DNA of 64,000 nucleotides from Phycisphaerales bacterium (GTDB lineage Bacteria > Planctomycetota > Phycisphaerae > Phycisphaerales > UBA5793), in NCBI GenBank assembly GCA_044229655.1, contig JBGASM010000015.1:35950-99949 (forward strand), read 5' to 3'. A model generated the notes under the pieces. That model ran no database searches. It was given only the letters and a program-made list of their open reading frames with translations, and had not been told where the DNA came from. Every line of letters begins with the position of its first letter. The first letter of the stretch is position 1. The position numbers and the translations under genes are program-made. Of this stretch, positions 6,471-64,000 are shown in pieces.

Positions 6471-7364
6471 TCACGGCTTCTGCCCGTTCATCGCCGTCAG
6501 CGCCAAATACAGGGCCTGCGTCCCCTTGCGCGACCACCCCTGCGCCGCCACCGCCCGATACAACTGCTCCGCCAGCGCCAGCCCCGGCACGGTCAGGTCC
6601 ATCCGCCGCGCTTCCTCCAACGCGATCCCCATGTCCTTGAGGAAATGCTCCACGTAAAACCCGGGCTCGAAATCTCCCTTCACGATCCTCGGCGCCAGGT
6701 TGCTCACCGCCCATGACCCCGCCGCACCCGACGACACCGCCTCCAGCACCTTCATCGGGTCCAGCCCCGCTTTCTGCGCGTAGAGCAGCCCCTCGCATAC
6801 GCCGATCATGTTCGTGGCGATGAGCATCTGATTCACCATCTTCGTGTGCTGCCCGCTGCCCGCGCCTCCCTGGTGCGTGATCTTCTGCCCCAGGTGCGCC
6901 AGCACCGGCCTTACCTCCTCCAGCGCCCCCGCTTCCCCGCCCACCATGATCGAAAGCGTCCCGTTCCGCGCCCCCACATCCCCTCCCGACACCGGACCAT
7001 CCAGCGCTGCTTTCCCCATGGCCCGCGCCGTCTCCGCAATCCTCCGCGCCAGTTCAGGCGATGACGTCGTCATGTCCATCATCACCTTTGGAACCGACTT
7101 CGAGGCGAAGATCCCCCGCTGCCCCTCAAAGTACGTGCTCTCCACATCGCGTGGATACCCCACCATCGTGATGATGAAGTCCGCTCCCGCATCCGCCACC
7201 GCACACGGCGAATCCGCCCACGCCGCCCCCTTGTCCACAAGCCCCTGCGCTTTTGCTTTCGTGCGGTTGTGAACCGTGACCCGATACCCCGCCGCCAGCA
7301 GCCGCCCCGCCATCGATGACCCCATCACTCCCGTCCCGATGAATCCGATGTGCGTAATGCTCAT
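6471..7364 (-). CDS. NAD(P)-dependent beta-hydroxyacid dehydrogenase (3-hydroxyisobutyrate dehydrogenase family)
   Basis: 297 aa. N-terminal Rossmann motif [13 protein letters not shown]. Length and layout are typical of the MmsB/GarR family. Confidence 0.88.
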
Positions 7365-7394
7365 GCCCGATTGTTGCGCTTTGGCGGGCTGCGT

Positions 7395-8000
7395 TCACGC
7401 CTTGTGCAGCGCCGGCCCTAATTCACTCAGTTCTCCCAGTTCAAATCCGCACTCCGGACAGTGTGTCGCCTGCGCCTCCAGCCCCTTCAGGTCATACCCG
7501 CATTGAGTGCACACATTCATCCCTCCGTCCCGCATCCGCCGCCACCGACTCTTCCGACTGACAAATCGCATGTAAAGGTCAATGCCGATGACGCCTCCGA
7601 ACACCACGGGCAGAAACATTAACCCACAAACAAGTGCCAAATTCGGAGAACTCTGGAGCGTGTACTGAATCGCCCACATACACGCGCCATACAGACTCCA
7701 ATAGGCTGTCGGCAGCAGGTAAGTCAGCATCAGGCGGCCGCGAGATTCCGTTGCCAAGCCAATCGTGCCGGTTGGAGCGCTGGCAGTTCCTGTGTCACTC
7801 CGTTTCGGCAAACGCGTTTCTGAGTCTTGCTGTCTGGCGATTACCCACCGCAAACACGAGACGCATGACGCAATAACGGCGAAGTCGATCAGAGTACTGG
7901 AGCTCACCGTGAAGACAGAACAGAGCCCAAAGTACACCCCTAAACCAACGACACCCCCACCGATGAATGCAAGATCCGATTTGGAGAATCGCTTCGTCAA
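7395..8000 (-). CDS. Four-TM membrane protein with C-terminal zinc-ribbon (CxxCGY...CPECG)
   Basis: The C-terminal part of track ORF 7395..8141 has four hydrophobic segments followed by CTQCGYDLKGLEAQATHCPECG. The upstream 126 nt of the track ORF overlap the HAD gene, so a start at TTG 8000 is proposed; this start is uncertain. Codon usage is atypical for the region. Confidence 0.6.
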   Translation of the reverse strand: MTKRFSKSDLAFIGGGVVGLGVYFGLCSVFTVSSSTLIDFAVIASCVSCLRWVIARQQDSETRLPKRSDTGTASAPTGTIGLATESRGRLMLTYLLPTAYWSLYGACMWAIQYTLQSSPNLALVCGLMFLPVVFGGVIGIDLYMRFVSRKSRWRRMRDGGMNVCTQCGYDLKGLEAQATHCPECGFELGELSELGPALHKA

Positions 8001-28228: not shown

Positions 28229-28273
28229 AAAAAAAAGGCGAGCCTCCGGCTGGTCGTCGGACCGGAGGCTCGC
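28229..28273 (-). terminator. Rho-independent terminator closing the sigma/anti-sigma/PDZ unit
   Basis: Perfect 12-bp inverted repeat GCGAGCCTCCGG (28238-28249) / CCGGAGGCTCGC (28262-28273) with a 12-nt loop. On the minus strand it is followed by a T8 run (A8 at 28229-28236 on +). It lies 34 nt after the PDZ gene stop. Confidence 0.8.
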
Positions 28274-28306
28274 GGAAACGAGAAGAAGACTGCGTCGTTC
28301 GTTCTC

Positions 28307-29359
28307 TTACCGGTCGTTGGACTCCTTCTCCTGTTCCTTCTGCAACTGCTCCAACATCGCCTTCGTCTCTTCGAGTTGCTTCTCAATCGATCGCATCATC
28401 TCCTCCCGCGTGCGGTCATCCATCGTCCCCCTCAGCCTCGGCACAAACAGGTCACCGCCCTGCCCCGGCCGCACAATCCTCACTTCACCTGGCGCCCCTG
28501 GCGCGGCCATTCCGAATGCGTCCGATTTGAACGCTTCCAGTGTCGCGTTCGCCGACATCGGCCGTCCCGCGCGCAGGTAGTGAATCTCAACTTTCGTCCC
28601 CGGCTCCGATTCAGCGATCAACTTCCGCAACGAAGCCTCGTTCACCTTCTGCCGCTCGCCGCCGTTCACGATCACCCCCACGATCAGGTCGTTGGGCTTC
28701 AGATCAATCGACGCCGCCGGCGATCCGTCCACGATCCCCGCCACCAGCACGCCCTCCTCAGGCCCAAGACCCAGGTAGGCACGCAGTTCTTCCGACGCCG
28801 GATTCAGCCGCACACCCAGCATCGACTTCGGCGGCGTCATGTCCTCCGGCGCCGCAAATGCCCACGCCTGGCCCTCTCGGGGAATCTCGATCCGCATATT
28901 GCCCAGACCTTCGAGTTCCTTCCACTCAGGCATCTCGTGCAGCCGTGCAAGACCTTCCATCTCCGGCAGTTCAATCATCATCTTGTGGCGCATCTCCTTC
29001 ATCTCGCGTCCGTCGTCGCTGAGATTGATGTACACATTGTCGATGCCCCGCTCTTTGAGAATTCGCTCCACATCCTCTTGCGTCTTCGCATCCGTCTTCT
29101 CCCCGTCAATCCACAACTCCACCGATTCTTCCCCATTCTCGCTCTTGCTGATGATCTTTACGGAAGAAGACTTCTCGCTCTTCTCCTTTGCCGCCAACTC
29201 CTGCTCGGCCTTTGGCGCCTCCTGTTTGTCCTGCGCCGTCGCGCATGACGCCAGGCTCAGCGCCGCCGCAGGCCCCAGCGCCAGCGCAGCCTTCAACCCC
29301 ATGTTCCATCCCATCCGTCCACGCGAAGAATGCCGTGTCATGACTCGTCCTTTCATCAC
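28307..29359 (-). CDS. Secreted PDZ-domain protein with C-terminal coiled coil (no protease domain)
   Basis: 350 aa; the start could be an internal Met. Lipobox-like LSLASC, then a DegP-type PDZ segment GVRLNPASEELRAYLGLGPEEGVLVAGIVDGSPAA...LIVGV, and a charged helical tail IEKQLEETKAMLEQLQKEQEKE. Confidence 0.8.
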   Translation of the reverse strand: MMKGRVMTRHSSRGRMGWNMGLKAALALGPAAALSLASCATAQDKQEAPKAEQELAAKEKSEKSSSVKIISKSENGEESVELWIDGEKTDAKTQEDVERILKERGIDNVYINLSDDGREMKEMRHKMMIELPEMEGLARLHEMPEWKELEGLGNMRIEIPREGQAWAFAAPEDMTPPKSMLGVRLNPASEELRAYLGLGPEEGVLVAGIVDGSPAASIDLKPNDLIVGVIVNGGERQKVNEASLRKLIAESEPGTKVEIHYLRAGRPMSANATLEAFKSDAFGMAAPGAPGEVRIVRPGQGGDLFVPRLRGTMDDRTREEMMRSIEKQLEETKAMLEQLQKEQEKESNDR

Positions 29360-34856: not shown

Positions 34857-34973
34857 CGCGGAAAGAGAAGAAAGACGGAGTGTGGCGGAACGAATTCGCT
34901 TGGGCGATATACACAAGCAATATAGTGCGTGAAATCGCGAGTCAGCCCACGGTGTAGTTGAGGAGAGAAAGAC

Positions 34974-36629
34974 ATGCAATCGTCCAGATACCAGTTGGCT
35001 CTTTTATTCGCAAATGTCTCTACGGCAGTCTTGTGCCCGACTCTCGCCGTCCGCATGGCATCTGCCGGCGACTTCAACGGCGATGGGTATGACGATGCCG
35101 CTCTCGGCGTCTCCGGCGATTCCCTCTTGGCGCCCCAGTCTGGTGCTGTCCAGATCATCTATGGATCGCGAATTGGGCTTAGCGTCGTTCGCTGTGATGA
35201 GATCTCCACAACCACCATTCGTCAAGGCGCTAATGGCGCGCCGGACCAGTCTGAGCAAGGCGACTGGTACGGACAGACTTTGGCGTGTGGCGATTTTGAT
35301 GGCGATGGCTTTGATGATCTCGCTGTGGGTGATTTCGCGGAGGATCTTGATAGTGTCGTTCATGCCGGTGCGGTACATGTGTTTTACGGATCGCCACTCG
35401 GACTGCGGTCCGACCGCTCACAGAATTGGCATTACGGGCCTAACAGTCTTGGAGGCGTACCTCTTCCTGGCGATCAACTCGGATGGGCCCTTGCGGCTGG
35501 CGATTTTAATGGTGATGAGATCGATGATCTCGCCATGTCCGTACCGTACAAAGATGTGGGTTCTGCCACAAATGCAGGACTCATCCACGTACTCTTTGGT
35601 TCGCAAACATTTGGTCTGACATCCGCTGGCATGCAGGATGTCACTCAAGACTCCCCCGGTGTGCCGGATCTCTGCGAAGGTGACGATTGTTTTGGACTAT
35701 CGCTCACGGCAGCCGATTTTGATGCTGATGGGTTTACCGATCTGGTCGTTGGAGTCCCTTGCGAGGACATAGGCCAGAATCGGAACTGTGGCGCAATTAA
35801 TGTGGTGTTTGGAAGCTCGTCCGGCCTTGCAGCACGAGGACAATTCTTCACACAGGATTCAACGCAGATACTTGACAAGGCCGAGCAGGACGACCTCTTT
35901 GGTCAGTTCCTGTGCGCGTCCAATCAGTACGAGACCTCAATCAACGGTGATGCTTTTGCCGACCTGATCATCGGCATCCCATTTGAGGAAACCGTGGATG
36001 GCGTCGGCAACTCCGGGGCGGTGGCCGTCCTCTTCGGTGCTGCGACCGGTCTTGCTGTGGCCGGAAATCAATTCTGGACGCAGGACAATCCCGACGCAGT
36101 CGACTCCGTCGAGAAGGACGATTATTTTGGATGGGCAGTGTCAATCGGTGATTACGACGCCGACGGATTCTCTGATGTCGCTATTGGGGTTCCCCAGGAA
36201 AGTTTCCCTTCGTCGAAGGATGATGTACATTATTCAGGTCGCTCCCAGAATTACTTCGGCAACTCAAATCAATGCGGTGCTGTCGCCGTGGTCATGGGTA
36301 GTCCCACCGGACTTTCTTCTCGCAATCTACTTCTCTATCAGGGTTCCCCTGGGATGGGCGGCCAACCAGGCCCTTATGAGTGGTTCGGATACTCCCTTTC
36401 CACATCACGACGCTCTTTCAATGACGATGAATACAGCGACCTCCTCATTGGCGCCATTCATGACAACTCCCCGCCTGCGTATCGCGCTGCTGGCGGCATG
36501 CATGTGCTGTATGGCACAACGCTCGGACTTGATCCGACTCGGAGCCGATTCTTCGATAGGAGCGGCGCCGGCATGGATGGGGTGGTCGGCACAGGAGATC
36601 TCTTCGGGTCCCCGGTCCTCGGCGATTAA
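34974..36629 (+). CDS. Secreted FG-GAP (integrin-alpha/VCBS-type) repeat protein, atypical codon usage
   Basis: 551 aa, with GAGGAG upstream and a signal peptide. At least 7 repeats of the GDFNGDGYDD / GDFDGDGFDDLAVG / ADFDADGFTDLVVG type. Asp, Phe, Gly and Ala are mostly encoded GAT/TTT/GGT/GCT, unlike the neighbouring genes. Confidence 0.9.
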   Translation: MQSSRYQLALLFANVSTAVLCPTLAVRMASAGDFNGDGYDDAALGVSGDSLLAPQSGAVQIIYGSRIGLSVVRCDEISTTTIRQGANGAPDQSEQGDWYGQTLACGDFDGDGFDDLAVGDFAEDLDSVVHAGAVHVFYGSPLGLRSDRSQNWHYGPNSLGGVPLPGDQLGWALAAGDFNGDEIDDLAMSVPYKDVGSATNAGLIHVLFGSQTFGLTSAGMQDVTQDSPGVPDLCEGDDCFGLSLTAADFDADGFTDLVVGVPCEDIGQNRNCGAINVVFGSSSGLAARGQFFTQDSTQILDKAEQDDLFGQFLCASNQYETSINGDAFADLIIGIPFEETVDGVGNSGAVAVLFGAATGLAVAGNQFWTQDNPDAVDSVEKDDYFGWAVSIGDYDADGFSDVAIGVPQESFPSSKDDVHYSGRSQNYFGNSNQCGAVAVVMGSPTGLSSRNLLLYQGSPGMGGQPGPYEWFGYSLSTSRRSFNDDEYSDLLIGAIHDNSPPAYRAAGGMHVLYGTTLGLDPTRSRFFDRSGAGMDGVVGTGDLFGSPVLGD

Positions 36630-36688
36630 TTCACTGCTGGCCATATTCTCCTCCCCGTTGACGCGGTCGCGCTCACTCATTCACTTAA

Positions 36689-36925
36689 ACAGCCCTCCGC
36701 TCCCCCCGCGCCCTCGGCTCCCAGGTCATCCCCCCCTCCTACGCCTGCGCCGGCACGTCCCTGGGCCTGGCCAACAACCACCTCCAGATCGCCTACACCG
36801 GCCCCGCAGGCACCTTCGGCGCAACCTCCCTCAAGTCCCGCGTTCCCGCCTCAATATGTAATACCTACCTCCAGCTCCTCGACATCACCTCCTGCCAAAC
36901 CTCCAACGTCGTGCAGATTCAATAA
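36689..36925 (+). pseudogene. Start-less remnant of the shared C-terminal beta-module (native C3 codon bias)
   Basis: Own translation of the frame ending at TAA 36923-36925 gives ...SYACAGTSLGLANNHLQIAYTGPAGTFGATSLKSRVPASICNTYLQLLDITSCQTSNVVQIQ*. It aligns with the tail of the NHL protein (GCPGTAVGIAAARVIGSARADEAGDASITINVPETLRGTPLYVQAVDRTACSASGALPVTFK*). There is an in-frame stop at 36686 and no start codon. Confidence 0.6.
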
Positions 36926-37187
36926 ACTCTCCGCTCTCTCCTCCCACCCAACCTCCGCCCATCGCCTGCCGTCCGATGGCGCTTCCTCATCGCGCCCCAC
37001 CGCGCTGCGCGCCGCTCCGCTTCCCCTCGAAGTTCATCGCCGCGCTGCCTCCTCCCGCCTCCTCTTCCCCGCCGGACGACCGCGCGCAGAACTGTGGCGC
37101 AGCCAAAAGCAAATCCAAAATCCCGGATTTCCCGGCGCGCGCACCAGCCTGATACACCCCTTGTTATCGCGGACCCACAAGCGCGCG

Positions 37188-37241
37188 AAAACCTGCCAAA
37201 ACTCGCGAAAACTCAGCAAAACTCAGGCAAACCCGTCTAAA
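37188..37241. repeat. Six helically phased A-tracts (unit AAAAC[CT]Y, 10-11 bp period)
   Basis: A3-4 runs start at 37188, 37198, 37208, 37218, 37229 and 37239, in sequence GAAAACCTGCCAAAACTCGCGAAAACTCAGCAAAACTCAGGCAAACCCGTCTAAACCC. The surrounding 0.56 kb has no credible ORF. Confidence 0.85.
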
Positions 37242-37486
37242 CCCTGCTGCCGGAAACCCCCCTCCCCCCGATCTCCCCCCCGTTTCACTCCCATTCCCGC
37301 AAGAGTGCTGACAAAACTTCTTTTCCTTGCTCTCAGCGCTCTCCTCCGTGCGCACCAACGCGCTCTTGTGGTCCTCCCCCATGCGCACACTCCCACCCCC
37401 TCATAACGACTTACATCACCGCGTTCGCCCCCCCTCCCTCCCCCTCTCCCTCCCCCTTCTCCCGTCCCTCCCTACCCTCGCATCCT

Positions 37487-38701
37487 GTGACCACCCTCGA
37501 ACAGAGAATCTGCGCTCACCTCGCCGCCCGCCACGATGCCATGGTCGCCGACCTCGCAGCCCACGTCGCCATCCCCACCGGCACCGGCCACGCCCCCGGC
37601 ATTAAAGCCTACCGCAACCTCCTCATCGACAGGCTGATGCGCCTCGGCGCCCGCGTCGACCGCCACCCCGGCCAGCCCCGCCCCGACTGGCTTGACCCGA
37701 CTCCGCGCGCTCCCGCCGCGGACATCCCCGACACCGTCACCTGCGCCTGCCGCGGCGGCGCGGGCAAGCGCATTCTCCTCGCCGGGCACGTCGACACCGT
37801 GCACGATCCCTTCGGCCCTTTTCAAACTCTGCAGATCTCCGCCGACGGCGCGCGCGCCGTCGGCCCCGGCTGCGCCGACATGAAGGGCGGCAATTTAATT
37901 GCGCTGCACGCGCTGGAGGCGCTGGCGGCGGAAAACGTGAAAATCGACTGGACGTTTCTTCTCAACGCGGATGAGGAGACGGGGTCTTATCACTCCGCCG
38001 AAGCGCTGCGGGCGCAGGCGAAACAGCACGACATCGGCCTGGCCATGGAGCCGGCCCTGCCGGGGAAAGCAAACTTGGAGAGCGCGCTGGCGGTGGCGCG
38101 CATGGGCAGCGGCCACTTCCGATTCGATGTGCGCGGAAAATCGGCGCACGTGGGCCGCGACTTCAAGAGCGGCGTGTCGGCGGTGGCGGAACTGGCGCGG
38201 ATCATCACGCGCGTGAGCAGCGCGAGCGATCCGGATCACGGCCTCATTGTCAACGTGGGGCCGCTCAAGGGCGGCAGCGCGGTGAACATCGTGCCTGACT
38301 CGGCGGCGTGCTGGGGCAACGTACGCTTCGAGACTCCGGCCGATGCGCAGCGCGCCGTTGCGACGCTGGAGGAACTGGCCACATCCGGGCCGGACGCACT
38401 TCCTGCCGTTTCCCTGCGCCGGGTGTGGTCGCGGCCGGCCAAGCCGCTCACGCCCGCGGTGCAGGGGATTGTCGATGTCATCCAACGGACGGGGGCTGAT
38501 CTGGGGCAGCGCATAACACCGACCTCGACCGGGGGAGTGTGCGATGGAAACATCCTTCAAGATGCCGGATTGCCTACGATTGACACGCTGGGCGTCCGCG
38601 GCGGCGGGACGCACACACCGCAGGAATGGATTGATCTGCCAAGTCTGGTCGAGCGTGCACAGTTGCTCGCCATTGTCATTCTGAGACTTGCGCATTCCTG
38701 A
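37487..38701 (+). CDS. M20-family metallopeptidase / deacylase (carboxypeptidase G2 / DapE-ArgE-like)
   Basis: 404 aa with GTG start. Motifs GHVDTVH, GPGCADMKGG and NADEETGS. The ORF is continuous across the composition switch at about 37,890. Confidence 0.9.
   Translation: MTTLEQRICAHLAARHDAMVADLAAHVAIPTGTGHAPGIKAYRNLLIDRLMRLGARVDRHPGQPRPDWLDPTPRAPAADIPDTVTCACRGGAGKRILLAGHVDTVHDPFGPFQTLQISADGARAVGPGCADMKGGNLIALHALEALAAENVKIDWTFLLNADEETGSYHSAEALRAQAKQHDIGLAMEPALPGKANLESALAVARMGSGHFRFDVRGKSAHVGRDFKSGVSAVAELARIITRVSSASDPDHGLIVNVGPLKGGSAVNIVPDSAACWGNVRFETPADAQRAVATLEELATSGPDALPAVSLRRVWSRPAKPLTPAVQGIVDVIQRTGADLGQRITPTSTGGVCDGNILQDAGLPTIDTLGVRGGGTHTPQEWIDLPSLVERAQLLAIVILRLAHS
37890..37902. repeat. 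13-nt AT-rich palindrome GCAATT-T-AATTGC at the strand-composition junction
   Basis: Read directly from the sequence. It is formed by the codons GGC AAT TTA ATT GCG (G-N-L-I-A) of the M20 gene. AAT, TTA and ATT are A/T-ending codons that are rare elsewhere in this window. Confidence 0.9.
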
Positions 38702-38825
38702 CGACCCGTTCAGAAACCTAATAAAGACGTCGCCGACATTCCGCAATGTTTGGCCTCCTTACCAACCGATCCCCTTACATCACCGCCAGTTGATTCTCCA
38801 GCCGCAAACTGAATGTGAGTCTGCC

Positions 38826-40343
38826 ATGACCCCCACCGCGACTTCCGCCGCCCCCGCTTCATCCACCGTTTCTTCTTCCTCCTCCTGCGCCACCAATTCC
38901 TGTTCCTGCGGTGTGACGGGAACGATTGCGCACAGCATGCATACGAACCCGGTCATTGACCAAGCCATCGAGAAGATCGTGGGCGAGATGGACAAGCAGA
39001 AGGCGCGAATCACGGGCGTGCGCCCCGCGCTGGACGCAGCGCATGAGGCGCGGCTGGTGGACATGCTCAAGCAGGCATGCACGGTGCGCGGGCGGGACCG
39101 GCTGTATTACGACTACATCGGCTCGGGGATCGGCAACGGGCCATATGTTGAAATGGCGGACGGGTCGGTCAAACTCGATCTGATCTGCGGCATCGGCGTG
39201 CATTTCTTCGGGCATTCGGATTCCCAGGCTGCGGCGACGGGTCTGCGGGCCGCGCTGGCGGACACGGTGATGGCGGGCAACCTGCAGGCCAATCACAACG
39301 TCACGGAGTTTGCGCAGGTGCTGCTGAACCAGGCGGCCAGGAGCAGCAGACTCGCGCATGCGTATCTCATCAACGGCGGGTGCATGGCCAATGAGAACGC
39401 CATCAAGATCTGCTACCAGAAGAACGCGCCGGCGAACCGCGTGATCGCTTTCGAGCATTGCTTCATGGGGCGGAGCGTGACAATGTGCCAGATCGGCGAC
39501 AACGCAGCCAACCGCGTGGGCATTCCGCTGTCGACGCTGGTGGATTACATGCCGTTCTACGACCCGGAGATGGGGACGAAGTCGATTGATTACTGCGTCA
39601 AGCGCCTCGAGGAGTACGTCGCCCGGTATCCGAAGCAGCATGCATGCTTCATCTTCGAACTCATCCAGGGTGAGGGCGGCTTCAACAGCGCGCCGCGCGA
39701 GTACTTCACAGCGCTCATGGACATCTGCAAAGCCAACGGCATCGCAGTGTGGGATGACGAAGTGCAGACGTTCGGCCGGACCGGGGAGTTTTTCGCCTTT
39801 GAGAAGTTCAACCTCGGTCAGTATGTGGATGTATGCACGATCGGGAAGATGAGCCAGGTGTGCGCCGCGTTGTACACCAAGGATTACAACCCCAAGGCGG
39901 GGCTGCTGTCGGCGACGTTCATCGCATCGGCGCAGGAAATCGAAGTGGGCACGCTGTATCTCAAGCGGCTGCTGGGAAGCGGCCTGTACGGCGCGAACGG
40001 GTTGATTGAGAAGCACCACCGCCGGTTTGTCGAGGGGGTCAACGCGCTGAAGGCGAAGCACCCCACCTGGTTCCCGCCGGTGTCCTATCACGGACACACG
40101 TTCACCAACACGCCGATCGCGGGAGGCGTGGGGGGAATGATGCGCTTCACGCCTTTCGGCGGGGACAAGCAAAAGGTCACCGACCTGCTGCAGGTGATGT
40201 TCAAGGAAGGCATCATCGGCTTCTACGCGGGCCACGGCCCGTATCACGTGCGCTTCCTGCCGCCGCTGGGCGTAATGGACCTGGCCACGTGGGACGTCGC
40301 GTTTGACCTGCTGGAACGTTCCATGGCCAAGATCGCGAACTGA
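38826..40343 (+). CDS. Class-III PLP-dependent aminotransferase (ArgD/AstC-like)
   Basis: 505 aa from ATG 38826; an alternative start at ATG 38937 would remove a Ser/Cys-rich leader. It has DEVQTFGRTG and a candidate Schiff-base lysine region (TIGKMSQ). Confidence 0.85.
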   Translation: MTPTATSAAPASSTVSSSSSCATNSCSCGVTGTIAHSMHTNPVIDQAIEKIVGEMDKQKARITGVRPALDAAHEARLVDMLKQACTVRGRDRLYYDYIGSGIGNGPYVEMADGSVKLDLICGIGVHFFGHSDSQAAATGLRAALADTVMAGNLQANHNVTEFAQVLLNQAARSSRLAHAYLINGGCMANENAIKICYQKNAPANRVIAFEHCFMGRSVTMCQIGDNAANRVGIPLSTLVDYMPFYDPEMGTKSIDYCVKRLEEYVARYPKQHACFIFELIQGEGGFNSAPREYFTALMDICKANGIAVWDDEVQTFGRTGEFFAFEKFNLGQYVDVCTIGKMSQVCAALYTKDYNPKAGLLSATFIASAQEIEVGTLYLKRLLGSGLYGANGLIEKHHRRFVEGVNALKAKHPTWFPPVSYHGHTFTNTPIAGGVGGMMRFTPFGGDKQKVTDLLQVMFKEGIIGFYAGHGPYHVRFLPPLGVMDLATWDVAFDLLERSMAKIAN

Positions 40344-40410
40344 CGATCGCCTGCGAATCACAGTCGTTCCGACTTCTATTCCTCACTGACACACAGATCC
40401 CGGGTGCTCC

Positions 40411-41535
40411 ATGTTTGTGATCCGTCAGACGCGCATCGATGACCTGCCCATCCTCCTCAAACTGGCGCGGATGGTGCACTTCATCAACCTGCCGGCGGAC
40501 AAGGACATCATCACAGGCAAGATCGAACGCTCGGAACAGTCCTTCGGCGGGAAGATCGGGAACCCCACGCAGGGCCTGTACATGTTCGCCATTGAGGATG
40601 ACGAGACGGGCAATCTGCTGGGAACGTCGCAGATCATCGCGAAGATGGGCACGCCTGAATCGCCTAACACATATTTCGAGGTGGGCACGCGTGAGTTTTA
40701 CGCGGATGACCTGCGACAGGGGTGTCGGCACACGACGCTCAAACTGGGCGCGGAACGGGACGGGGGAAGCGAAGTGGGCGGGCTCATCCTGCAGCCTTCA
40801 TTCCGCGGGCATCCGTCGCGACTGGGCAAATCCCTGTCGCTCATCCGGTTTCATTACATCGGCCTGCATCGGGAGCGATTCGCGGATGAACTGATTGCGG
40901 AAATGATGGCCCCGCTGACGCATGAGGGAACCAACGCGCTGTGGGAGTACCTGGGTCGTCGGTTCATCAACCTGACCTATGACGAAGCGGATCGGCTCTC
41001 GACCAAGTCCAAGGCGTTCATCCTGGACCTGATGCCGAGGGAGGAAATCTACGTTTCCCTGCTGCCGCCCGAAGCGCGGATCATCATCGGGCAGGTAGGC
41101 AAGGACACTGAACCTGCGAAAGCGATGCTTGAGAAGATGGGTTTTGAGTACCGCAATCACATCGATCCGTTTGACGGCGGGCCGCACCTGCACGCGCGGA
41201 CGGGAGATGTCACGGTGATCCGGGACACCCGCCGGGTCACGCTGAAGGGTGCGTGCGGCAAGGGGCAGGCGGGCGGAGAGGCGCTGGTTTCATTTGAGAG
41301 CGAAAGCGGATTCCGCGCGCTGCGGACGGAGCTTGCGCTTTCGGGCGGAAGCGGGGACATCCTGCTTCCCAAGCCGGTGATGGCGGCGCTGCAAGCCGAG
41401 CCGGGCGCGACGGTGGGTCTGACGCTGCTGGCGCACCCGAACCGAGGGACGAAGCGGGGCGGCAGCGCGAAGGGCAAGGGGAATGCAGGGTCCAAGCGGA
41501 CCAAGGGGCGGAAGGCAGTCGGGCAGGGCGCGTAA
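40411..41535 (+). CDS. Arginine N-succinyltransferase (AstA)-family acyltransferase with basic C-terminal tail
   Basis: 374 aa. It is colinear with E. coli AstA as I remember it (MxVIRP..., ...GQVH/GKDTxPAxAxLEKxGFxYRNxIDxFDGGPxL). It has an extra Lys/Gly-rich tail KRGGSAKGKGNAGSKRTKGRK. Confidence 0.85.
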   Translation: MFVIRQTRIDDLPILLKLARMVHFINLPADKDIITGKIERSEQSFGGKIGNPTQGLYMFAIEDDETGNLLGTSQIIAKMGTPESPNTYFEVGTREFYADDLRQGCRHTTLKLGAERDGGSEVGGLILQPSFRGHPSRLGKSLSLIRFHYIGLHRERFADELIAEMMAPLTHEGTNALWEYLGRRFINLTYDEADRLSTKSKAFILDLMPREEIYVSLLPPEARIIIGQVGKDTEPAKAMLEKMGFEYRNHIDPFDGGPHLHARTGDVTVIRDTRRVTLKGACGKGQAGGEALVSFESESGFRALRTELALSGGSGDILLPKPVMAALQAEPGATVGLTLLAHPNRGTKRGGSAKGKGNAGSKRTKGRKAVGQGA

Positions 41536-41596
41536 GCCGGGAGCGGGGGAATTCCGCGCTGATGCGGAAGGGGCGATCACCATATCATCGCCCCCA

Positions 41597-42898
41597 ATGC
41601 CCGCACTCTTCATCACCAACGGTCGACTCATCGACCCAGCGTCCGGCCTGGATGAGACTGGCGATCTCGTCATCAATGACGGCAGGGTGGTTCAGGTCGG
41701 AGGGAAAGCCAAGCCTGCCAAGGGAGCGACGGTCATCGATGCGCGGGAGCGGATCGTGACGCCCGGGCTTATTGACCCGCATGTGCATCTGCGCGAGCCG
41801 GGCAAGGAAGAGGCGGAGACAATCGCATCGGGCGCGGCGGCGGCGGTCAGCGGGGGATTCACGACGGTGTGCTGCATGCCCAACACCACGCCCGCGCTGG
41901 ATCATCCCGCGATGATCGACTCGGTGTATCGCAGGGCGGACCTGGCAGGGCAAGCGCGGGTGTTTCCGGTGGCGGCGGTGACGAAAGGGAGGAAGGGGAC
42001 GGAACTGGCGGAGATCGGGCTGATGGCGGCGGCGGGTGCGGTGGGGTTTTCAGATGATGGGGACTGCGTGGAATCGCCGGCGGTGCAGCGGCGCGCGTTC
42101 CAGTTCATCAAGCAGGCGGGATCGGTCATGATGCAGCATTGTCAGGACCGGTCGCTCACGCAGGGCGGGGTCATGAATGCGGGACCGACGGCGATGCGGA
42201 TGGGGCTGACGGGTTGGCCGGCGGTGGCGGAGGAGATGGTGATTGAGCGGGATGTGCGGCTGAATCGCGACATCGGATGCCGATACCACGTGCAGCACAT
42301 GAGTTGTGCAGGGTCGGTGGAGATTGTGAGGCGGGCGCGGGCGGAGGGACAGCCTGTGACGGCGGAGGCGTCGCCGCACCACCTGCTGCTGACGGATGAG
42401 GCGTGCCTGGGGTACAACACGAACGCGAAGATGAATCCGCCGCTGCGCGCGATGCGGGATGTCGAGGCGCTGCTGGAAGGCGTTGCGGATGGAACGATCA
42501 CGGTGTTGGCGACGGATCATGCGCCGCACACGCGGGAAGCGAAGGACCTGGAGTTTGATGCAGCACCGTTCGGGATTGTGGGAATCGAAACGGCGCTGGC
42601 GCTGTATGTGAAGGCGCTGGTGGAGCCGAAGATCATCGACTGGCCGAGGCTGATTGCGCTGCTGACGGTCGAGCCGGCGAAACTGTGCGGGCTGGACCGG
42701 GAACCGTGGGGCCTGGGAAGGCTGGCGGTGGGGGGGCGTGCGGATGTGACAGTGATTGATCCGGATGCGGAGTGGACGATTCGCGCGGCGGAGTTCAAGA
42801 GCAAGTCGCGCAACACGCCGTTTGAGGGGTGGACAGTGCGTGGGAGGGCGGAGGCGGTCATTGTGAACGGGGTTGTCAAGATGGGTGGTCCGCACTGA
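41597..42898 (+). CDS. pyrC: Dihydroorotase (class I, allantoinase-like)
   Basis: 433 aa from ATG 41597. Metal-ligand motif GLIDPHVHLREPG, and a later ATDHAPH segment. Confidence 0.9.
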   Translation: MPALFITNGRLIDPASGLDETGDLVINDGRVVQVGGKAKPAKGATVIDARERIVTPGLIDPHVHLREPGKEEAETIASGAAAAVSGGFTTVCCMPNTTPALDHPAMIDSVYRRADLAGQARVFPVAAVTKGRKGTELAEIGLMAAAGAVGFSDDGDCVESPAVQRRAFQFIKQAGSVMMQHCQDRSLTQGGVMNAGPTAMRMGLTGWPAVAEEMVIERDVRLNRDIGCRYHVQHMSCAGSVEIVRRARAEGQPVTAEASPHHLLLTDEACLGYNTNAKMNPPLRAMRDVEALLEGVADGTITVLATDHAPHTREAKDLEFDAAPFGIVGIETALALYVKALVEPKIIDWPRLIALLTVEPAKLCGLDREPWGLGRLAVGGRADVTVIDPDAEWTIRAAEFKSKSRNTPFEGWTVRGRAEAVIVNGVVKMGGPH

Positions 42899-57001: not shown

Positions 57002-58141
57002 ATGATGATGCGTTCCCGTTCTATCACTCTGCCCCTTCCCGTGTACGCGGCTGGCCTTGTCCTGATGTCGACGGCCGCCGCGAACGCGGAAACGAGGCGC
57101 GTTCCGCAGCAGTACGCGACGATCCAAGCCGCCATCAATGCGTCGAGCGACGGGGATACCGTGCTGGTCGGGCGGGGCGTGTGGTCGGGCGAGGGCAATC
57201 ATGACATCGACACGCTGGGCAAGGCCATCACGGTGCGCAGCGCGGGCGGTGCGGCGACGTGCGTCATCGACGCATCGGATTCCGTCAACTGGTACCACTC
57301 CGGATTTGTCTTCACGAACAACGAGTCGCCTGAGACAGTCATCGACGGCTTTACCATCATGAACGGGCACTCGTTCAACGGCGGCGGTATCTATGTGGAA
57401 AGCGGCAGCCCCACGATCCAGAACTGCATCCTCACGGCCAACACCTGCGACTGCTGGGGCGCAGCCGTCTACTTCAACTCACAGACCTCGCCCACGCTGC
57501 GCAATTGTCTCATCACCGGCAATACATCGGCGGCAGAAGGCGGCGGCATCTTCACGATCGACAGCGGCGGGCGCGTGGAGAACTGCATCGTCACCGACAA
57601 CATTGCGAACACCGGCGGCGGGCTGTGCGTCTTCGGCGGGGATGTGGAGTTCGTCTCGTGTCAGATCACGGGCAACACGGCGACCTGGTCGGGCGGGGGC
57701 GGGTATTTCTATGAGGGCAACCTGATCAACTGCACCATCGCCGACAACCACGCGGCATTTGACTCTGCGGGCATCTACACGTGGAGCAACGTGACCACCA
57801 TCGCCAACTCGATCATCTGGGGCAATACGGGCGCTGCCCAACTCACCGGCACACCTGTCCTTTCCTACAGCATCGTGCAGGGCGGATTTGCCGGTTCGCA
57901 CATCCGTTCGGTCGATCCGCGATTCGTGGATGCGGCCGCGGGTGACTACCGCCTGAGAGCCCTTTCGCCGGCGATCGACGCGGGCTCCAACCCGGCGGTG
58001 CCTGAGGGTTTCGCGTTGGACGCGGACGGCATGCCGCGCTTTGTCAATGACGCCAAGACCCGCGACACAGGCGTGGGCCCCTTCCCGATCATCGACCTCG
58101 GGGCCTTCGAGTTCCGCAGCACGCTGGCGAACTCGAAGTAA
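57002..58141 (+). CDS. Secreted right-handed parallel beta-helix repeat protein
   Basis: 379 aa from ATG 57002, with GAAGGAG upstream. Signal peptide. Six or more coils of the type IQNCILTANT..GAAVYF / LRNCLITGNTSAAEGGGIFT / VENCIVTDNIANTGGGLCVF / CQITGNTATWSGGGGYF. Confidence 0.85.
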   Translation: MMMRSRSITLPLPVYAAGLVLMSTAAANAETRRVPQQYATIQAAINASSDGDTVLVGRGVWSGEGNHDIDTLGKAITVRSAGGAATCVIDASDSVNWYHSGFVFTNNESPETVIDGFTIMNGHSFNGGGIYVESGSPTIQNCILTANTCDCWGAAVYFNSQTSPTLRNCLITGNTSAAEGGGIFTIDSGGRVENCIVTDNIANTGGGLCVFGGDVEFVSCQITGNTATWSGGGGYFYEGNLINCTIADNHAAFDSAGIYTWSNVTTIANSIIWGNTGAAQLTGTPVLSYSIVQGGFAGSHIRSVDPRFVDAAAGDYRLRALSPAIDAGSNPAVPEGFALDADGMPRFVNDAKTRDTGVGPFPIIDLGAFEFRSTLANSK

Positions 58142-63706: not shown

Positions 63707-64000
63707 ATGACCATCCGGACCCGTTTGCTCCTGCTTTGTGCATTTTCCATCGGCGCAGCGCTGGTGAGCGCATCGCTTGGCGTGTGGGGCGTGAATGATG
63801 TCTATTCGGCCGCCGAGACCATTAAGACTCGCTCGAGCGCCCTGCGCAACCACCTTGAGGCGGACATGATGCACGATGCGTTGCGTGCAGATGTGCTGGC
63901 GGCCCTGCTGGCGGAGTCGGCGCAGGAGCGCAGCGCGGTCAGCGCGGACTTGGCTGAGCACTCTGAGCACTTTGAGAGCGCCATCGACGCCAACAGTTCG
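63707..64000 (+). CDS. Membrane sensor protein N-terminus (four-helix-bundle MCP/histidine-kinase type), truncated by window edge
   Basis: Own translation from ATG 63707 gives MTIRTRLLLLCAFSIGAALVSASLGVWGVNDVYSAAETIKTRSSALRNHLEADMMHDALRADVLAALLAES... This is a TM segment plus a helical sensor, as in chemoreceptor N-termini. It is absent from the track because it runs off the edge. Confidence 0.5.
   Translation, partial: MTIRTRLLLLCAFSIGAALVSASLGVWGVNDVYSAAETIKTRSSALRNHLEADMMHDALRADVLAALLAESAQERSAVSADLAEHSEHFESAIDANSS

Follow-up and report, generated by a model that had tools for sequence, protein, structure and literature searches.

A sharp C-to-G switch of strand composition, of origin polarity, inside an intact M20 peptidase gene of an uncultured Phycisphaerales bacterium

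What reverses the composition of a DNA strand within a single intact gene? The question is raised by a stretch of 64,000 nt from a Phycisphaerales bacterium (UBA5793; assembly GCA_044229655.1, contig JBGASM010000015.1, positions 35,950-99,949, forward strand), hereafter the window, in which the + strand turns from C-rich to G-rich inside the open reading frame (ORF) of an M20 peptidase. We analysed the 64-kb window and 10-kb flanks of a 207-kb contig from the Joint Genome Institute (JGI). Changes in G versus C were located by a likelihood change-point method with 2-log-likelihood (2-LL) support intervals, and gene calls were corrected against the public annotation before strand and orientation were tested. 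The flip is real and sharp, occurs once in the window and does not depend on gene orientation; two assemblies carry it, in a gene of ancestral operon order. The best reading, to which we give about an even chance, is a replichore boundary that arose in situ and has origin polarity; the chromosome would be that of an uncultured member of the Phycisphaerae with exceptionally strong G/C asymmetry.

The 64 kb contain a single G-versus-C change-point, at 37868 (2-LL interval 37829-37915), which separates two domains:

1-37870, unstranded: domain with a C-rich + strand for any gene orientation; G/(G+C) 0.371; replication component of GC skew at third codon positions (GC3 skew) ~0.53
37902-64000, unstranded: domain with a G-rich + strand for any gene orientation; G/(G+C) 0.580; replication component of GC3 skew ~0.36

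Calculated in 2-kb windows, skew ranged from -0.18 to -0.35 on the left, except over a variable island at 34-37 kb (~-0.08 to -0.10), and from +0.04 to +0.29 on the right. The G-rich right domain is the weaker and more heterogeneous of the two. To the left of the switch, + genes (ligA, thiolase, tatC and others) had sense GC3 skews of -0.51 to -0.67 and - genes (MoxR, an AddA-like helicase and others) of +0.38 to +0.55, the exception being the FG-GAP gene of the variable island (-0.29). To the right, the values were +0.04 to +0.47 for + genes, with one outlier at -0.24, and -0.23 to -0.64 for - genes. The asymmetry clearly tracks the DNA strand and not gene orientation; this claim of an earlier reading of the sequence (the original prediction) was borne out on both sides with the corrected gene calls. 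Third-position bias is set by strand for genes of both orientations, as in replication-strand-specific codon usage, and codon positions 1 and 2 are shifted by strand as well. The asymmetry is almost purely one of G versus C, with a replication component of 0.36-0.53 for GC3 skew and of only ~0.05 for AT3 skew. An asymmetry so nearly confined to G and C does not fit the classical cytosine-deamination (G+T-rich) signature.

The switch lies in the first gene of an M20-aminotransferase-AstA operon:

37487-38701, + strand: intact M20/M25/M40 peptidase ORF; 404 codons, no stop; PF01546 at 1.3e-22 and PF07687 (M20 dimerisation domain)
37871-37901, unstranded: 2-LL interval of the step from C-ending (C3) to G-ending (G3) codons; codons 129-139, C-A-D-M-K-G-G-N-L-I-A, overlapping the conserved DMKGG motif
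38937-41535, + strand: class-III aminotransferase and arginine N-succinyltransferase (AstA); conserved operon partners downstream of M20

Codons 1-135 of M20 are of C3-type and codons 139-404 of G3-type. The G3 share, G3/(G3+C3), is 18/115 (0.16) in the left part and 120/211 (0.57) in the right part, the latter only a moderate G3 bias (57%), and the log-likelihood ratio (LLR) of the difference is 28.0. The best cut lies before codon 132, and a step fits the transition best; a logistic curve is within 2 LL of it for scales no larger than 20 nt. The 10-90% transition width is bounded only, at < ~90 nt. The flip inside an uninterrupted ORF was thereby recovered as predicted, and the hand counts on its two sides proved exact (G15/C26 at 37501-37560 and G20/C13 at 37921-37980); the predicted width of ~15 nt agrees with the best fit but is not a proven bound. 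Among 27 genes tested, M20 is the sole one with a strong intragenic flip, the next LLR being 14.5 at the 5' end of another gene. The step sits 400 nt into the coding sequence, and the DNA is strongly C-rich right up to it: the 5' part of the window M20, with its G3 share of 0.16, compares with 0.17-0.25 in neighbouring + genes.

Genes whose sense strand is the G-rich one tend to be C-richer over their first ~45 codons (for example around 41597-41730 and 28260-28395). The G3 share is 0.38 in this part versus ~0.78 after it in the amidohydrolase gene, and 0.48 versus ~0.8 in AddA; either composition differs at 5' ends or the start codons are mis-set. A general 5'-end effect was considered as the cause of the M20 flip and rejected: no gene nears the 135 codons of M20 at a G3 share of 0.08-0.23.

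A second strain carries the same junction. Retrieved by an exact AstA protein match, JGI contig Ga0172278_1481 (207 kb, sample 3300013121; sister-strain locus L041) is 97-100% identical to the window over most of the overlap, differs in the island at 34.9-36.7 kb, and has the same layout of C-rich left flank, intact M20 and G-rich right flank. It was assembled independently of the 103.7-kb NCBI contig that holds the window's own M20. The two assemblies differ by ~23% around the junction and therefore do not share a mis-join. This answers the check for a chimeric join that the original prediction had proposed, as two independently assembled strains both carry the flip. The difference is concentrated in one tract:

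37370-38085 (L041 ~6960-7675), unstranded: hyperdivergent tract between the strains; 715 nt, 23% divergent, spanning the flip

The flanks of this tract are ~96% identical on the left and ~100% on the right, where the edge is abrupt, and outside it the two strains share 95-100% identity. At 4-fold sites the strains differ in 27/68 cases over codons 1-135, 7/32 over codons 136-200 and 0/133 over codons 201-404. The third-position differences in the 5' part of M20 are lopsided, with C in the window and G in the JGI strain at 20 sites and the reverse at 5. There is one hyperdivergent tract in ~17 kb of alignment, and the flip lies inside it, a coincidence with a chance of ~4%. The identity of its flanks marks the tract as either imported by recombination or hypervariable. 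In the sister allele the G3 share is uniform at 0.33 through codon 136 and 0.55-0.63 thereafter; the best step, at codon 138, falls in the same place but is shallower (0.33 to 0.56) and has a wide interval. Both alleles share the step position, which therefore pre-dates their deep split. The razor sharpness of the step and an AT-rich palindrome at it belong to the window allele alone, and the extreme sharpness in this strain may be partly owed to a recombination tract over the site. The description "sharply fixed" in the original prediction thus suits the window allele; in the sister strain the position holds but the sharpness does not. Four other assemblies of the species are without an intact M20, which suggests several co-existing M20 alleles at a multi-allelic, hypervariable locus.

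Relatives of M20 place the flip in an old gene order. In genome and metagenome contig collections, all M20 relatives were from metagenome-assembled genomes of Phycisphaerae/Planctomycetota at <=57% identity; one relative at 67% identity (locus L067) was found in a database of 5.8 billion (5.8e9) proteins. The M20-aminotransferase-AstA order is kept in ~18/26 Phycisphaerae loci and in the 67% relative, which makes the arrangement of genes that spans the flip ancestral. The operon is intact across the flip, with no gene-order break of the kind expected at an inversion or rearrangement breakpoint. Upstream gene order was conserved in no relative examined, so that the left side is uninformative on a breakpoint. 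The ratio of N- to C-terminal identity, calculated for the N-terminal 131 residues over 118 homologues, is 0.83, and that of the family 0.78 +/- 0.03; against P0002, the closest relative, identity is 0.61 N-terminally and 0.74 C-terminally. The ratio matches that of the family, and the 5' part of M20 therefore does not come from a distant paralogue. No protein between 67% and 100% identity to M20 was found among the 5.8e9 proteins, which include both source assemblies. The conserved operon, the orthologous N-terminal third and the missing 67-100% proteins strengthen the argument against a crossover between paralogues that had been made from the sequence alone.

The mosaic itself is not shared by other lineages. 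In ~40 M20 orthologues the G3 share is equal in the N- and C-terminal parts, and many are C3-type throughout; the 67% relative has weak skew, no flip and different flanks. A comparison of orthologues for the same mosaic, which the original prediction had called for, thus returned a step at the same place in the sister strain but uniform genes elsewhere, and the C3/G3 mosaic is specific to this species. One orthologue has the opposite mosaic (L016, 9926-11215), with a G3 share of 0.50 N-terminally and 0.28 C-terminally (p = 2e-4). Strong skew was also seen at other Phycisphaerae loci (L012, L006 and L013). One of these, a distant Phycisphaerae locus (L012, 4917-4980, identical to L053), has an equally sharp C-to-G flip, with skew from -0.35 to ~+0.2. 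That flip lies ~200 nt past the M20 stop codon, exactly where the aminotransferase-AstA partners are missing, and no origin-type genes are near it. A comparison of k-mers between our junction and the L012 flip region gave nothing. A class-wide link between M20 and origin-type flips (L012 and, more weakly, L024 and L011) was considered and rejected: no gene order is shared beyond M20, and ~40 orthologues are uniform.

Two palindromes lie at or beside the step:

37890-37902, unstranded: AT-rich perfect palindrome GCAATTTAATTGC; rare codons AAT-TTA-ATT; strain-specific
37841-37864, unstranded: 24-nt perfect palindrome GCCGACGGCGCGCGCGCCGTCGGC; the longest in the window (12-nt arms; next 8), ~30 nt left of the step

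Within the first, AATTTAATT (at 37892) is the only run of >=9 A/T in coding sequence of the window and lies inside the step interval; TTA accounts for 0.5% of Leu codons in the window. Co-localisation of both palindromic features with the step is unlikely by chance. The predicted coordinates of the AT-rich palindrome and the rarity of its codons were verified, but the palindrome belongs to no conserved mechanism: the corresponding codons are AAC-CTG-ATC in the conspecific strain (L041) and AAC-CTC-ATC in the 67% relative. The 24-nt palindrome is imperfect in L041, with 3 mismatches. By this comparison, the AT-rich palindrome appears to be a strain-specific by-product or a coincidence rather than a required element. 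A hairpin or cruciform role of the palindromes found no support, as the folding z-score of the junction DNA is an unexceptional -1.0 and the sister strain is without both perfect palindromes.

How does the boundary compare with a replication origin? As a well-established rule, the leading strand is G-rich and holds the majority of genes. Read 5' to 3', the + strand switches from C-rich to G-rich, the origin-type polarity that had been predicted. To the right of the flip, 17 of 22 genes are on the + strand, among them rpsB and tsf, a count that agrees with the public gene calls and with the earlier tally; to the left, only ~15/27 are on the - strand. Because leading strands are G-rich and gene-rich, the C-to-G polarity and the gene orientation fit diverging forks. 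The left domain would then be of lagging-strand type and the right domain of leading-strand type, and bidirectional replication would start at the boundary. The origin reading draws on two observations only, polarity and gene orientation.

A mechanism along these lines would run as follows. The + strand left of ~37.88 kb would long have been copied as lagging-strand type and the + strand right of it as leading-strand type. Under strand-asymmetric mutation pressure, silent sites and, in part, codon positions 1 and 2 would come to opposite equilibria left and right of the boundary. Since this boundary is 400 nt into M20, a single ORF would end up with two codon dialects, C-ending over the first ~135 codons and G-ending later. 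If forks diverge here, both leading strands would start within a few tens of nt of 37.88-37.90 kb.

Several results weigh against an origin. No DnaA box with <=1 mismatch was found at 16-49 kb, using a TTATCCACA-like consensus that may differ in Planctomycetes, and 36.5-38.5 kb holds one match with 2 mismatches, below the window average. No AT-rich unwinding element was found, the AT-richest 40-nt stretches locally reaching only 55% A+T. The non-coding tract at 36.9-37.5 kb has no repeated 9-mer above shuffles and no repeat array or iterons. As the original prediction had cautioned, dnaA and dnaN are absent from the window, which also lacks the other usual origin neighbours and a DnaA-box cluster. 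The boundary lies within a coding region, with 400 nt to the closest non-coding DNA. On the right the replication component of GC3 skew falls short of that on the left (~0.36 versus ~0.53), as a partly decayed inverted segment would also give; the step interval overlaps the DMKGG motif, the likeliest place for a crossover between diverged M20 copies; and the L012 flip at an operon break indicates that flips in this group can coincide with breaks in gene order. The orientation pattern is equally expected from an inverted segment. The ORF-free tract upstream of M20 has no Rfam hit, and scans for tRNAs, promoters and terminators returned nothing. For the predicted fork-polarity switch, the polarity stands, gene orientation diverges from the site (weakly so on the left) and a chimera does not account for the flip, but no oriC hallmark was found. 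To our knowledge, replication origins are essentially uncharacterised in Planctomycetota, and a literature search on planctomycete oriC, DnaA boxes and Phycisphaerae skew found nothing specific.

The strongest alternative, which we consider unlikely though deserving of weight, is an old recombination junction: a large intra-replichore inversion, or an equivalent event, with one breakpoint in M20. Crossover at DMKGG between oppositely oriented M20 copies, each equilibrated to its strand, would have produced an in-frame hybrid, and at least 26 kb on the right would be slowly decaying. Codons 129-139 hold GAC ATG AAG GGC GG, the longest stretch conserved at the nucleotide level among orthologues, and a right-hand skew that is ~2/3 of the left and more heterogeneous is what such decay would leave. 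The missing origin hallmarks and the same-polarity, sharp L012 flip exactly at an operon break also favour this explanation, and gene orientation fits it equally, since an inverted segment carries its own gene bias. However, it requires an in-frame crossover at a homologous codon between copies sharing little third-position identity. The reciprocal hybrid gene expected of a paralogue-mediated inversion was not seen in the protein database, which contains no paralogue above 67% identity, and the N-terminal part of M20 is as close to its orthologues as the C-terminal part. The ancestral operon order across the junction argues against it as well. No repeat, IS (insertion sequence) element or paralogue was found at the junction within the window, the reciprocal junction having been sought in the protein database only, and there is no IS element, repeat or second flip within 38 kb on the left and 26 kb on the right. 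Finally, the step is common to both alleles despite their deep divergence, which would require an old event.

Skew reversals after recent inversions resemble the present one in being abrupt and in affecting genes of both orientations, and the relative with a flip at an operon break (L012) may be compared with them. They differ from it in that the junction gene here is intact and orthologous over its full length, the ancestral operon partners follow, and no repeat, IS element or reciprocal product was found.

It is distinctly unlikely, and would modify the replichore boundary rather than replace it as a full alternative, that a broader boundary within ~37.4-37.9 kb was sharpened by allelic replacement. 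Homologous recombination would have imported a 5' segment of M20 whose composition had been equilibrated in a donor lineage, which would explain both the point-like step and the palindrome. The hyperdivergent tract is suggestive in this respect: 23% divergence at 37370-38085, reaching 40% at 4-fold sites of codons 1-135, stands between flanks of ~96% and ~100% identity with an abrupt right edge. The 20-versus-5 asymmetry of third-position differences, the uniform G3 share of 0.33 in codons 1-136 of the sister allele, the four assemblies of the species without an intact M20, which point to several alleles, and the frequency of wholly C3-type M20 orthologues in the class are in keeping with an import. 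Yet the upstream non-coding DNA is strongly C-rich, and the sequence from codon 139 onward G-rich, in both strains; the boundary therefore lies inside the first ~140 codons in either allele. Moreover, the 5' part of the window allele matches the neighbouring + genes in G3 share, as in-situ equilibration predicts, and the donor lineage is absent from every database searched.

A more specific form of the replichore boundary is improbable. In it, bidirectional replication in this lineage of Phycisphaerae would start at a nucleotide-precise intragenic site without DnaA-box or unwinding architecture, for example primed by a transcript or R-loop where the M20 mRNA turns G-rich. Both leading-strand starts would lie within a few tens of nt of each other, and the surrounding 0.7 kb would be a mutation and recombination hot spot caused by initiation.

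The two weakest readings are effectively excluded. A replication terminus or dif-type site would find some support in the variable island and the recombination hot spot beside the flip, in the palindrome at it and in precedent. Hendrickson and Lawrence reportedly described in 2007 that skew changes sharply at dif, in the terminus. Shifts of this kind have been documented well (Kono et al. 2011, PMC3025954), in a survey in which dif prediction failed for Planctomycetes. They resemble our case as near step-like changes beside variable gene content and a recombination zone, but a terminus would show the reverse polarity if leading strands are G-rich, and the majority of genes, rpsB and tsf among them, would run head-on to replication. 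Neither the G-to-C polarity and converging genes of a terminus nor a 28-bp XerC/D-type site was found; the palindrome is absent from the sister strain, and the site lies inside a coding gene. An assembly or binning chimera, a computational fusion of two genomes or strands within a conserved gene, might be suspected of a metagenome-assembled contig near which several short-read assemblies of the species break (one Logan contig ends at 36909), but the NCBI and JGI contigs, from different strains, have the same layout with intact M20, their ~23% difference near the junction excludes one shared artefact, and no assembler-misleading repeat is present there.

With respect to the replichore boundary, two known phenomena are instructive. 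Skew-based origin prediction, associated with Lobry in 1996 and with Oriloc, Ori-Finder and DoriC practice, is said to place oriC at the GC-skew switch. The M20 flip is like a bacterial oriC switch in that the + strand turns from C-rich to G-rich, gene orientation tends to diverge and there is one switch in tens of kb. It is unlike one in being resolved to < ~90 nt inside an intact gene that lacks a DnaA-box cluster and an AT-rich unwinding element nearby and has neither dnaA nor dnaN within 26-38 kb. Replication-strand-specific codon usage has reportedly been described in Borrelia burgdorferi and Treponema, by McInerney in 1998 and Lafay et al. in 1999. As in those genomes, codon choice is set by replication strand in either orientation, and here positions 1 and 2 are affected too. 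By contrast, the present case is a planctomycete of 64% G+C with a near-pure G-versus-C asymmetry and both dialects in one ORF.

If the flip is a true site of fork divergence, composition would map leading-strand starts at <100 nt resolution in an uncultured planctomycete. Such resolution normally requires biochemical mapping. Initiation, or at least the leading/lagging switch, would then occur inside a coding gene, away from recognisable DnaA-box and unwinding architecture. M20 would offer a clean natural case of one protein written in two replication-strand codon dialects, which helps to separate mutational from selective causes of codon usage. Should the flip prove to be a junction left by old recombination, one in-frame hybrid gene could mimic an origin signal in strongly skewed genomes, which would call for caution in skew-based origin calling from metagenome-assembled genomes.

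Upstream of M20, the non-coding DNA and the nearby island contain the following features:

36862-37486, unstranded: ORF-free tract of 625 nt preceding M20; extremely C-rich, with a skew per 100 nt of -0.31 to -0.73
37118-37130, unstranded: perfect palindrome AAATCCCGGATTT within the conserved non-coding tract upstream of M20
37175-37187 and 37359-37371, unstranded: inverted repeat CCACAAGCGCGCG / CGCGCTCTTGTGG, ending exactly where conservation between the strains stops
34858-36691 (L041 2730-6293), unstranded: island that varies between strains, 1.2 kb to the left of the M20 start; weak skew, G+C lowered to 0.57-0.59

The ORF-free tract is 95-98% conserved between the two strains up to 37370. 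At ~37186-37245 it contains six AAAAC/AAACC tracts phased at 10 bp, with a spacing of 10-11 bp. The variable island follows an HNH endonuclease gene; in the window it comprises 1.8 kb and encodes one FG-GAP protein, and in the JGI strain it is 3.6 kb long and has three different genes.

On the other side of the flip, positions 38085-42750 are nearly identical between the strains, with ~14 differences in 4.6 kb (~99.7% identity), whereas much of the rest is 3-5% different. This looks like a recent transfer or sweep of the 3' part of M20, the aminotransferase, AstA and amidohydrolase genes, which have the weakest skew on the right side. Further right, a Pel9A-like + gene (57002-58141) has a skew opposite to that of its neighbours (sense GC3 skew -0.24 within the G-rich domain); it was probably acquired recently or lies in a small local inversion. 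The other assemblies, from JGI and two Logan runs, all stop 300-475 nt past the window end, and this break (63707-64000 and beyond) falls in the gene of a methyl-accepting chemotaxis protein with a 4HB sensor domain.

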